Virus record (IMG/VR): IMGVR_UViG_2541047776_000001
Location: 1 to 10,428 of that record
Strand: one strand, 5' to 3'
Length of the DNA: 10,428 nucleotides
DNA from: a virus
Taxonomy: Duplodnaviria; Heunggongvirae; Uroviricota; Caudoviricetes
The position numbers were made by a program. Below, piece after piece: positions 6,001-9,000 of the stretch; position 1 is the first letter of the stretch; each line of letters begins with the position of its first letter.

Positions 6001-9000
6001 ATTTTTGTAGAGGCAACGATTCAAGCAAGTAAAGAAACTTACATAACCTCTGCAATACAATACGCACCAAAAAAAGGTGGTGTCGTTGAATCTGGTGACT
6101 ATATTTATCTGGCCACCCCTCAGGTTGAGGATGGTTCGTGTGTATCATCTTTTATTATATCAGGAACGACGGCGGCGACGCGCGCAAGCGATATGGTTAC
6201 AGTTCCGATTAAGAATAATCTTTATAATCTTCCTTTTACGGTTCTTTGTGAGGTACATAAGAACTGGTATAAAACGCCAAATGCAGCGCCACGTGTTTTT
6301 GATACCGGCGGTCATCAAACCGGAGCGGCTATTATTCTTGGCTTCGGATCTTCGGCAGATGGGCCAGACGGATTTCCTTATTGCGATATTGGTGGATCAA
6401 ATAGGCGTGTTAACGAAAACGCATCGTTGAAAAAAATGGTTATGGGGATGCGTGTAAAGTCAGATCAGTCTACATGTGCAGTAAGTAACGGGCGTATATC
6501 CAGCGAAACAAAAACCACATGGGAATATATCCGGAGTACAGCAACCATTCGCATTGGTGGACAAACTACAGCAGGATTACGCCATTTATTTGGGCATGTG
6601 AGGAATTTTCGTCTCTGGCATAAAGAGCTAACAGATGCGCAGCTTGGGGAGGTTGTGGAGTGAGAGATTTCACGTTGCGTTTCAGTGATAAAGCAGATTT
6701 CAGGGCATTTCTCAGGAAACTTAACTGGGAAGAGGACGAAGAGCTGCAGAATGCCGTTCTGGTTGATGAGATTGGTTTTACGTTCAGGGAGACAGATGTT
6801 TCTGATGACGGAGAACCAGAATACACGCGAAACGAAGGGTACTTTGTTAATATCCGTCTTCTTGACGATGGATTTGATGATTCCGTGTTCCGTGAGTGGG
6901 TGGTTACACCAGAGCGCCCGCTCAGGGAGTGGTTTTAAGGATAGCAGATGGATATCACGTCGATACTTCATGCGCTTTGTGCCGTGGCGGTGCAGGTACT
7001 GGCTGGTCTTTTTACCGGAAACTGGGCTTACGGGGCGATAGCCGGTTGTACGTTCTTCATTGCGCGTGAACACACCCAGGCAGAATATCGCTGGATTGAA
7101 ATGTTCGGGCATGGCAAGCGGATTAACATGCCGTGGTGGGGCGGTTTTGATCCACGTGCATGGGATGTGGCAAGCCTGATGGATTTTGCTGTGCCGGTGG
7201 TGGCGTGTCTGCTGGTCTGGCTGTTGGTTAATCGTGGGTGAAAAAGGTGAGCAGTATATGCAACGAAGGAGGAAACATCATTGCTGGCGGCATGGAAGGC
7301 ATGCAGGGTGTTGCTGAACCGTGTTGATACATCAACTGCACCTGATATTGAGTGGCCTACGAACCCTGTCAGGGAGTAATCATTGGGATTATGCCGCAGC
7401 ACGTCTTAAGCAAGAACGTGCTGCGGTTGGATGCTATTTTTTCCCTGAAGCGGAAAACATTACTACAGTACCTTGAACCTTGGTTTTAACATTCTCGAAA
7501 TGCTCTGAGAGTATATGTGTTAAGCCTTCTTCGGAATCTTTTGTGTTTGAAAAGATGCCTTTCTGATTGTAAATGCGCATCAGTTTTTGACCGAAGCTAT
7601 TGTGCACAACGCCGTCACCAAGAATTGTGGCTCCGTATAGAGTTCCATCGTCAGTTAAGGCCTGCGCCGCATTGCGTATTACACAGCTTTTTGTAGATAT
7701 ATTTCCAGGCAGGCAGTGAAGAAGGTAAAACATGGAAATGGAATCAAATTGACCATGTAACGCCGCGGGATAAGGATCAAAAACATCATGGCTAATTTTA
7801 TGTTTAATTTTTGATTCCCCAGCCCTTGTCGATGCCGCGTTCAGGCTAGCTTCGTTCAAATCCATTAAAGATATCAGACTACTCTCAGGTACGTGAGTAA
7901 GGTAAAACCCAGTTCCAACGCCAATATCCAGATGGTTGTTACCTAAATGTTCCAGAAAGTGTGGAAGAAGGTGTTCCTTTGTAGGACATCCCCATGCAAG
8001 CCGATTTGATACTCCCAAAACCCACCAGTCATAAAGCTTTAGGGTAAGTGGTGTGTAAATTTTAGCCCCATCATCTGTGTTTTTTTTCATTAGTTTCACC
8101 GTATTATAGTTTTATTTGTGAATTAAATCAATTATGGCGATGAATTACAAGGGGTTAAATGCTGCCGCAGCATAGCGATATTGAAATAGCCTGGTATGCT
8201 TCGATACAGCAGGAGCCGAATGGCTGGAAGACCGTCACCACACAGTTCTACATCCAGGAATTCAGTGAGTATATTGCGCCACTGCAGGATGCTGTAGATC
8301 TGGAAATCGCAACGGAGGAAGAAAGATCGTTGCTGGAGGCATGGAATAAATATCGGGTATTGTTGAATCGTGTTGATACATCAGTAGCTCTGGGTATGAA
8401 GCTGTTTGTAACTCATGTTACAGTAACAGCCATTACTATCTCGAAGGTGCAAAATGTATATTGATTTGATATTTTATAAATTTACTTCGAATCTGGCACG
8501 TCAACTTTTGATTAAAGTAATATCAGTTTTCGGCGAAAAAAGGACCGTGTACATGAGACGATTTCATACAAGAATAACAAAAATATGAATATGCTCCCAA
8601 TGCAATATATGTTTTGCATTGGGAGCAAATAGCGGAATATTTTGAAATTATTGTATTTCTGCTTCAGAATTTCCTGGGCAGTATATATTTTCTGGTTTTT
8701 GTGGAGTGATCAGGTGATGTACAACTGCTTTATCTACACATAAATTAACTCCGGTGAGAGCTAATGTATGCCCATCACCATTTATTGTTAGTAACGGGCT
8801 GGAAAATTTCTCTGCCATCTTACGGGCATTAATCCAGGGCGTTGTTGGGTCGTATTTGTGTGCTACAAACAGTAAACCAGAGGGCAGAACAGTATTTTTC
8901 AGGCGAGTTTTGTTCAGGTCGCTATGTATTGGCCATAATTCACAAAAATCAGGTGAATCGGAACGTCCATTGTCAAAGTTAATAGCCGGGAAGGCATTCG

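Follow-up and report, generated by a model that had tools for sequence, protein, structure and literature searches.

A small, deeply conserved gene for a predicted inner-membrane protein carried behind unrelated receptor-binding genes of tailed phages

Introduction

Cor (of phages phi80, HK022, N15 and T1) and Llp (of phage T5) are small proteins whose genes adjoin receptor-binding genes and whose supposed role is to shield the cell or the progeny from phage; both are secreted outer-membrane lipoproteins specific for one receptor, FhuA. The present analysis concerns a gene in a similar position in a 10,428 nucleotide (nt) stretch of caudoviricete DNA (positions 1 to 10,428 of IMG/VR record IMGVR_UViG_2541047776_000001; this whole stretch is called the window below), which is part of a lambdoid prophage of extraintestinal pathogenic Escherichia coli. 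The gene, an open reading frame (ORF) for a 97-amino acid (aa) product that is given the working name X, lies at window positions 6948–7241 on the plus strand, and an earlier note on this DNA had proposed that it might encode a superinfection-exclusion or receptor-masking factor like Cor or Llp. X proves to be a genuine gene for a three-helix protein of a conserved family, one that moves as a module, is linked to unrelated receptor-binding genes and also has chromosomal copies. It has no lipobox, is predicted to lie in the inner membrane by three helices, is constant across fiber types and has no detectable sequence relation to Cor or Llp, and its product is tentatively read here as a host-envelope-directed accessory protein.

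Two other groups of phage proteins invite comparison. T4 Imm, HK97 gp15, P22 SieA and P2 Z/fun are small inner-membrane or membrane-associated accessory proteins, as X is predicted to be, and the genes for HK97 gp15 and P2 Z/fun lie among or just after the tail genes. X shows no relation to Imm, gp15 or SieA in sequence or fold and matches no annotated PHROG or Pfam family; it differs from such inner-membrane exclusion proteins also in its far wider distribution and deeper conservation, and in occurring as a stand-alone chromosomal gene. The cargo genes for O-antigen conversion (gp21/gp22 of epsilon15, a polymerase and a small inhibitor with two transmembrane (TM) helices; P22 GtrA; and the O-acetylase annotated as OafA/YrhL in phage 611R6) occupy the same slot directly after the tailspike gene, and they too encode small inner-membrane proteins. 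They are not homologous to X, however, which is co-oriented with the tailspike gene, often translationally coupled to it, and found also in bacteria without a classical O-antigen.

Gene X

The start signals of the gene, read from the sequence, and its extent are as follows.

6937–6941, plus strand: Shine-Dalgarno-like AAGGA, 6 nt before the ATG of X, sharing bases with the TAA of the preceding 92-aa ORF
6948–7241 (stop included), plus strand: gene X, ATG at 6948 and TGA at 7239–7241; encodes a 97-aa protein, predicted to be a three-helix inner-membrane protein, and a member of phrog_1443

The ORF and the Shine-Dalgarno site claimed for it earlier are therefore both present, and in phage 21 a ribosome-binding site is annotated at the equivalent position. 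X is far beyond a chance ORF, since it matches phrog_1443 from end to end (E 6e-58; residues 1–96 on profile positions 1–96 of 97, so that it is a full-length member), its homologs fall into many clusters, and its invariant residues show synonymous codon variation. It is already catalogued, in entries that carry no function. The function of phrog_1443 is listed as unknown, the same ORF in E. coli S88 is a 'hypothetical protein' in RefSeq (WP_000355700.1), and the phage 21 annotators called its counterpart, CPT_21_24, a 'putative membrane protein'; the UniRef name is 'Ybl63', and many E. coli genomes have an annotated protein identical to it. Nothing distinguishes X from these entries. A literature search on X, phrog_1443 and 'Ybl63' found no study of the protein.

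Homology searches bear out the earlier remark that the function of X is not recognizable. Scans of Pfam-A, NCBIfam, all PHROGs and PADLOC with X and 75 diverse family members (the set on which all column counts below are based) gave only phrog_1443 and phrog_34165, both of unknown function. Weak matches to PhoR, VirB3 and holins were rejected as noise, none of the known defense-system models in PADLOC was matched, and a profile search of PDB sequences gave no match even at an E value of 10.

The X protein

Two to three hydrophobic helices had been noted in X, and prediction of its TM helices agrees: a Kyte-Doolittle plot has strong peaks at residues 3–24 and 71–97 and a weaker hydrophobic stretch at residues 26–39, and an AlphaFold2 model built from a 20-sequence alignment (mean predicted local distance difference test score (pLDDT) 87.8, predicted template modeling score (pTM) 0.70) contains three helices, residues 4–23, 26–53 and 74–96. 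The parts of the protein map to the window as follows.

6957–7016, plus strand: helix 1, residues 4–23, from AlphaFold2, hydropathy and column counts; conserved face H8-A12-Q16-G20-G24
7023–7064, plus strand: hydrophobic part of helix 2, residues 26–39, from AlphaFold2 (the whole helix being 26–53); joined to helix 1 by the 2-residue turn G24-N25; G24 and G29 conserved
7065–7175, plus strand: polar helix extension and Arg/Trp-rich loop, residues 40–76; conserved, and predicted to be cytoplasmic by a positive-inside count
7167–7235, plus strand: helix 3, residues 74–96, from AlphaFold2 and hydropathy; S76, D79 and P83 conserved

Residues 40–76 follow the pattern R40 E41 x x Q44 A45 E46 Y47 R48 W49 I50 ... 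R58. N M P W W G G F D P R. W72. The loop side of the protein is rich in positive charge: lysine plus arginine (K+R) average 6.2 over the 75 members on the side made up of the N-terminus and the 40–76 loop versus 0.6 on the other side, which comprises the turn between helices 1 and 2 and the C-terminal tail; in 74 of the 75 the loop side has more. Because of this asymmetry the conserved loop should be cytoplasmic by the positive-inside rule, and the predicted topology thus runs from an N-terminus inside through a tight hairpin to the conserved cytoplasmic loop, and from there through a third helix to a C-terminus outside, an arrangement that would leave few residues, almost nothing, exposed to the periplasm. 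With its three hydrophobic helices and its K+R asymmetry, X has the predicted character of a protein integral to the inner membrane.

These properties bear on the idea that X is a mask of the Cor (phi80, HK022, N15) or Llp (T5) type which blocks the outer-membrane receptor of the neighboring fiber. X is indeed small and hydrophobic and adjoins a receptor-binding gene, and the phage 21 record notes a 29-aa signal sequence predicted by SignalP; X was judged here to be without a signal peptide. It also has no lipobox. Its only early cysteine, C11, sits in 'HALC' (H-A-L before the Cys), and that column is not conserved, being Ile in 39 and Val in 10 of the 75 members. The confident three-helix bundle with a C-terminal membrane helix, and a charge bias that points to a cytoplasmic loop and little periplasmic exposure, likewise speak against a mask, and the lipoprotein-like part of the analogy gives way to a polytopic inner-membrane prediction.

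The X family

A search of 5.8 billion proteins with X found 571 clusters at 90% identity, all of about 95–105 aa, and when 1.84 billion representatives were searched exhaustively with a profile, 429 clusters at 50% identity resulted; a search seeded with a Sphingomonas member added 880 further clusters, mostly environmental. The family spans the Alpha-, Beta- and Gammaproteobacteria and includes Desulfovibrio. E41, W72 and P83 are invariant in it (75 of 75), H8, R40 (74 of 75), Q44, A45 and E46 (72 of 75 each) are at least 96% conserved, Y47, R48, R58 (64 of 75) and D79 (64 of 75) are 80–85% conserved, and P62 and Q16 stand at 76% and 68%, respectively. The conserved positions lie on one face of each helix (8, 12, 16, 20 and 24 in helix 1; 29, 33, 37, 41 and 45 in helix 2; 76, 79, 83 and 87 in helix 3), and the polar ones among them are all at one and the same membrane boundary.

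It is the protein that is constrained, since the invariant residues use varying synonymous codons in distant homologs: among members from Leclercia, Aeromonas, Comamonas and Pantoea, synonymous codons for conserved residues differ in 28–46 of 55 distant pairs (R40 in 46, A45 in 45). The family is under purifying selection on its protein.

Within E. coli phages a different pattern is seen in part of the gene. Window positions 7005–7094 (about codons 20–49 of X) are almost invariant in nucleotide sequence among the alleles of lambda-like, P22-like and epsilon15-like phages, and the ends of the gene differ by 20–30%. A nucleic-acid element embedded in this core was considered and rejected, as the same codons vary freely in distant homologs; because synonymous sites are free to vary elsewhere, the core is best read as the product of recent recombination, that is, mosaic exchange. 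It is possible that it serves as a homology anchor for the swapping of receptor-binding cassettes.

Genomic context of X

Neighboring genes were read by same-strand ORF analysis, and the counts refer to the 80 closest viral loci in IMG/VR. X follows a lambda-type side fiber gene and the 92-aa ORF (ORF92) in 47 of them and a 227–346-aa distal fiber protein in 33. In P22-like phages it comes after the tailspike gene, between that gene and int (in one, phage 611R6, it adjoins the O-acetylase gene and a scrap of a lambdoid fiber gene), and in an epsilon15-like phage it follows the tailspike gene at the slot where epsilon15 has its O-antigen polymerase and small polymerase inhibitor. X follows P2/HP1-like fiber genes of Aeromonas and Leclercia with a 4-bp overlap or no gap at all; overlaps of 4 bp with the fiber gene are present in loci L011, L118, L153 and L004, and the gap is zero in L012 and L157. 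Other upstream partners are a GDSL-esterase tailspike in one context, a 2520-aa J-type tip protein in Comamonas, an S74/pectate-lyase tailspike in Desulfovibrio and a lectin-domain protein in Chelativorans. In Halomonas phage phiHAP-1, X lies between the fiber-assembly gene and the sheath gene, which is where P2 carries Z/fun. In Comamonas nitrativorans and Pigmentiphaga humi (L123/L124, 6001–6691) it lies between a 370–383-aa ORF (383 aa in C. nitrativorans) and the Avd gene of a diversity-generating retroelement, and would there be inside a hypervariable receptor-binding module; by length alone, the 370–383-aa ORF can be likened to the BPP-1 receptor-binding protein Mtd. In a jumbo Aeromonas phage the neighbor of a full family member is a helicase/terminase gene, not a fiber gene. 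The phages that carry X include siphoviruses, myoviruses and podoviruses.

In E. coli phages of the lambda-like, P22-like and epsilon15-like kinds, X is 76–100% identical behind fibers and tailspikes that are unrelated; it is read here as tuned to no particular receptor or fiber. A receptor-specific mask should co-vary with the receptor-binding protein, and because X is nearly constant behind unrelated ones, a mask of this kind is unsupported; chromosomal copies far from any phage gene (below) and the restriction of PHROG and Pfam matches to the two families of unknown function, with no exclusion-annotated PHROG, Pfam or PADLOC family matched, tell against it as well. What stands of the earlier proposal is a small membrane protein tied to receptor-binding genes; masking in the manner of Cor and Llp does not, and is so improbable that we give it hardly any weight.

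A trace of X is found also in virulent phages. The K1 phage vB_Eco_ZCEC08 has an unannotated, frameshifted remnant (L167, 3465–3660; '...ANIPWWGGFDWRAWDLPSLLD') directly after its endosialidase tailspike gene, and the K1 phages 6947, ST1UNAM, PBM-2 and PBM-3 have the same remnant, all with an intact endosialidase gene. From this it would seem that X arrived together with the receptor-binding cassette and decayed afterwards.

A further thought raised by the context is that X is a holin, an antiholin or some other permeabilizing factor in lysis. X is small with three membrane helices, of which helix 1 contains the conserved polar residues H8 and Q16, one of the 75 members has a weak match to Phage_holin_8 (E 0.0036), and in phiv142-3 X lies just upstream of a cassette for a membrane protein, a holin and an endolysin. 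The lysis genes lie elsewhere in phage 21, in the prophage of the window and in P22-like and P2-like phages, however, and no lysis family is matched by the genes that come after X in Comamonas and other loci; holins do not typically have a highly conserved soluble-face motif or chromosomal housekeeping contexts. With phiv142-3 the only context near a lysis cassette, a holin is not convincing, and a role in lysis at large is very improbable.

Mobility and expression

The base composition and the homology breakpoints of X both set it apart from its neighbors. Its guanine plus cytosine (GC) content is 54.8%, compared with 43.2% for the fiber tip and 46.6% for ORF92, and in phages whose upstream genes differ, the shared nucleotide sequence sets in at the start codon of X or just before it. 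In lambdoid phages (the window, phage 21 and 2G7b) homology runs on through a remnant of a tfa gene at 7260–7379, and because it extends that far, the fiber tip, ORF92 and X look like a cassette that has replaced an older stf-tfa pair, with the tfa remnant read as a recombination scar at the right end of the imported segment. X thus has the separate composition and history of a moron, on lambda-like, P22-like, epsilon15-like and P2-like backbones, and is horizontally mobile, moving as a module.

Independent transcription, the other mark of a moron, is found in some contexts of X and not in others. P22-like phage Gally has a terminator after the tailspike gene and a promoter-like site before X, and phages 2G7b and 611R6 have a terminator-like hairpin just before X. 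In the window no sigma-70-like promoter was found on the X strand and no terminator flanks the gene, the nearest terminator-like site on that strand being after lom; the simplest reading is therefore that X here ends the late fiber transcript as its last gene. A stable RNA hairpin (6890–6927; −24.6 kcal/mol, z −3.5), followed four bases on by UUUU, falls within the final codons of ORF92, immediately ahead of the X Shine-Dalgarno site. The hairpin, which is not conserved in phage 21, could attenuate transcription or affect the translation of X.

Such an arrangement could point to a late-acting aid to the receptor-binding protein or to the virion, such as a membrane platform on which fibers mature, or a guard that keeps progeny from adsorbing to or ejecting into debris at lysis. 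In favor of this are the tight coupling of X to the fiber gene in many phages (the 4-bp overlaps and zero gaps above), its place within late operons and the failure to detect a promoter of its own in the window. On the other side, X is independent of fiber type, stands alone in chromosomes with no fiber gene nearby, has decayed in virulent K1 phages that keep their endosialidase gene intact, and lies beside a helicase/terminase gene in the jumbo Aeromonas phage; known fiber chaperones, moreover, are soluble. A Tfa-type chaperone in particular was rejected: X matches neither Caudo_TAP (PF02413) nor a tail-assembly PHROG, is membrane-embedded and independent of fiber type, is present without a fiber gene, and is dispensable in the virulent K1 phages. 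A late helper function in general is improbable.

Chromosomal copies and prevalence

Within E. coli, X is seen in prophages and phage-plasmids and nowhere else, and is common there: of 5426 complete genomes, 1900 (35%) contain it, the median being 2 copies and the maximum seven. Several Aeromonas species have a stand-alone X gene between the genes for pirin and RIO1 kinase, with no phage gene within 6 kb, and in Sphingomonadales and other Alphaproteobacteria chromosomal copies lie near ligA or near genes for polynucleotide phosphorylase (PNPase), DAHP synthase, pyruvate dehydrogenase/enolase or RmuC/DsbA. A conserved operon partner was sought in these contexts and none was found, as the neighborhoods vary. 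On two sphingomonad contigs X lies near KpsF-, KpsU- and Wza-like genes.

The last observation fits the suggestion that X is a small inner-membrane enzyme or lipid-binding protein that works at the cytoplasmic leaflet on undecaprenyl-phosphate-linked glycan intermediates or another lipid-linked precursor and so converts the cell surface, in lysogeny or during infection, by altering the display of O-antigen, capsule or enterobacterial common antigen (ECA). X also occupies the slot of O-antigen conversion genes in epsilon15 and in P22-like phages, many of its upstream partners are glycan-directed tailspikes (GDSL, pectate-lyase/S74, and the endosialidase with the X remnant), and its invariant His, Glu, Asp and Arg residues cluster at one membrane face. 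X is not similar to any known transferase, phosphatase or flippase, however, 97 aa is very small for an enzyme unless it is oligomeric, and the chromosomal neighbors are not conserved; sphingomonads, to our knowledge, have no classical lipopolysaccharide (LPS). In mechanism this explanation overlaps the reading of X that is set out in the Discussion, and it predicts a glycan phenotype rather than a block to DNA entry. We consider it unlikely.

Neighboring genes in the prophage

The surroundings of X are conserved among strains, with window positions 6600–7450 being 100% identical to S88, APEC O18, PMV-1 and many others. The other features of the window are the following.

303–1436: 3′ part of gene J, disrupted near its end
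about 1384–3837: IS66-family element, with ORFs at 1465–1869, 1866–2213 and 2262–3800, inserted about 30 bp before the end of J
3939–4538: lom (Ail/Lom)
4597–6663, plus strand: side tail fiber gene, 688 aa, the receptor-binding gene that X follows; PF08400 phage_tail_N (1.4e-69) and phrog_1419
6660–6938, plus strand: ORF92, encoding an acidic 92-aa protein of phrog_1361 (function unknown); overlaps the fiber gene stop and lies between the fiber gene and X
7260–7379, plus strand: 3′ remnant of tfa (tail fiber assembly), directly after X; a RefSeq pseudogene in S88 (L001, 8661–8780)
7434–8099, minus strand: ybcY-like S-adenosylmethionine (SAM) methyltransferase gene, phrog_2132, between the two tfa fragments
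8159–8464: second tfa fragment, PF02413 (8.9e-18)
8648–10132, minus strand: secreted-type alpha/beta hydrolase gene, 494 aa, with a TAP-like C-terminal domain

The order lom, side tail fiber gene, ORF92 and X confirms that X is directly downstream of the tail fiber module. Against S88, the flanks of the IS66-family element overlap by 8 bp (S88 locus L001, 5152–5159), which is its target-site duplication; the central tail fiber J is therefore altered at its C-terminus and the prophage is probably defective. X is intact in this prophage with its disrupted J. Residues 331–530 of the side tail fiber (window 5587–6186) match the NCBIfam GTA head-spike fiber domain NF048003 (E 3.7e-13), which hints at a polysaccharide-binding fiber tip and not an OmpC binder like lambda Stf.

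The trio of fiber gene, ORF92 and X is present in phage 21 as well. ORF92 also accompanies this type of fiber in ev243 and is absent upstream of X in P22-like, epsilon15-like and P2-like contexts, and so it goes with the fiber type, not with X. No Caudo_TAP gene is present with the ORF92 type of fiber, and for this reason ORF92 may be a chaperone of its fiber class.

The two tfa fragments look like scars of repeated cassette exchange; flanking the ybcY-like gene, they resemble the order tfaD-ybcY-tfaX in prophage DLP12 of E. coli K-12. The alpha/beta hydrolase matches the PADLOC candidate-defense model PDLC01094 (C3a206; E 4.4e-57) and adjoins ompT in S88 and phage 2G7b. The prophage small RNA svsR was considered as a neighbor of X and rejected, since it lies in cI.

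Discussion

From the family, its contexts and its mobility we infer a topology, a kind of target and a phenotype for X. The reading that we put forward, tentatively and at less than an even chance, is that X is a mobile accessory inner-membrane protein directed at the host envelope that does not mask a receptor, and that it acts by exclusion at the level of the inner membrane or of envelope precursors, or by conversion of the surface. X would be a non-structural, polytopic protein with its conserved Arg/Trp/acidic loop at the cytoplasmic face of the inner membrane, where a putative pocket at the cytoplasmic leaflet, rich in His, Glu, Asp, Arg and Trp (H8, R40, E41, Q44, E46, R58 and D79 being named for it), would bind or act on an inner-membrane component conserved across the Proteobacteria; the likeliest target would be a lipid-linked precursor of the envelope or some conserved machine of the inner membrane. 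Phages would maintain X in the cargo position that follows their receptor-binding genes, expressing the two together, and X would alter the infected or lysogenized cell so that further phage genomes or particles could not enter productively. The expected outcome would be inner-membrane or envelope-precursor exclusion or surface conversion, which are not exclusive of one another, rather than masking of an outer-membrane receptor. By analogy with the inner-membrane proteins named in the Introduction, superinfection exclusion in this wider sense, at the inner membrane, is possible.

Several points weigh against this proposal. No homolog of known function stands behind any phenotype suggested for X. 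Known exclusion proteins are usually narrowly distributed and evolve fast, and the X family is deeply conserved; its housekeeping-like chromosomal copies suggest a physiological function that has nothing to do with phages. The X strand of the window, as described above, has neither a sigma-70-like promoter for the gene nor terminators around it, and X is often tightly coupled to a late fiber gene, so that X might equally well act late in the lytic cycle. As for the conserved charged residues, their role could be structural and nothing more. Finally, TMHMM in the phage 21 record gives two TM helices with both termini inside, which would place the loop of X in the periplasm. This result is judged to be less reliable than the topology from AlphaFold2 and charge, because TMHMM cannot represent the 2-residue hairpin turn of the AlphaFold model.

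What is unusual in X is the depth of its conservation, its indifference to fiber type and its cellular homologs. On a bolder and quite unlikely extension of the envelope-directed reading, X would be a new, receptor-independent class: a minimal module of about 100 aa, probably oligomeric, that is an inner-membrane enzyme or binds ions or lipids, borrowed from a cellular family of Sphingomonadales and Aeromonas and carried by all three tailed morphotypes to reprogram a universal envelope step (for example the inner-membrane route of entry, or how lipid-linked precursors are supplied), shutting the cell to phage or changing its surface.

X rides with the host-range module of lambda-, P22-, epsilon15- and P2-like phages, often in several prophages of one E. 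coli genome. Even if it had no effect on phage entry or the envelope, it would still be of use in marking where exchangeable receptor-binding cassettes end on the right. If X does exclude phages or remodel the envelope, it would be a common, unrecognized determinant of phage susceptibility in clinical E. coli, with relevance to phage therapy and to prophage-mediated fitness, and a function would be assigned to a deeply conserved, unannotated family of bacterial membrane proteins.

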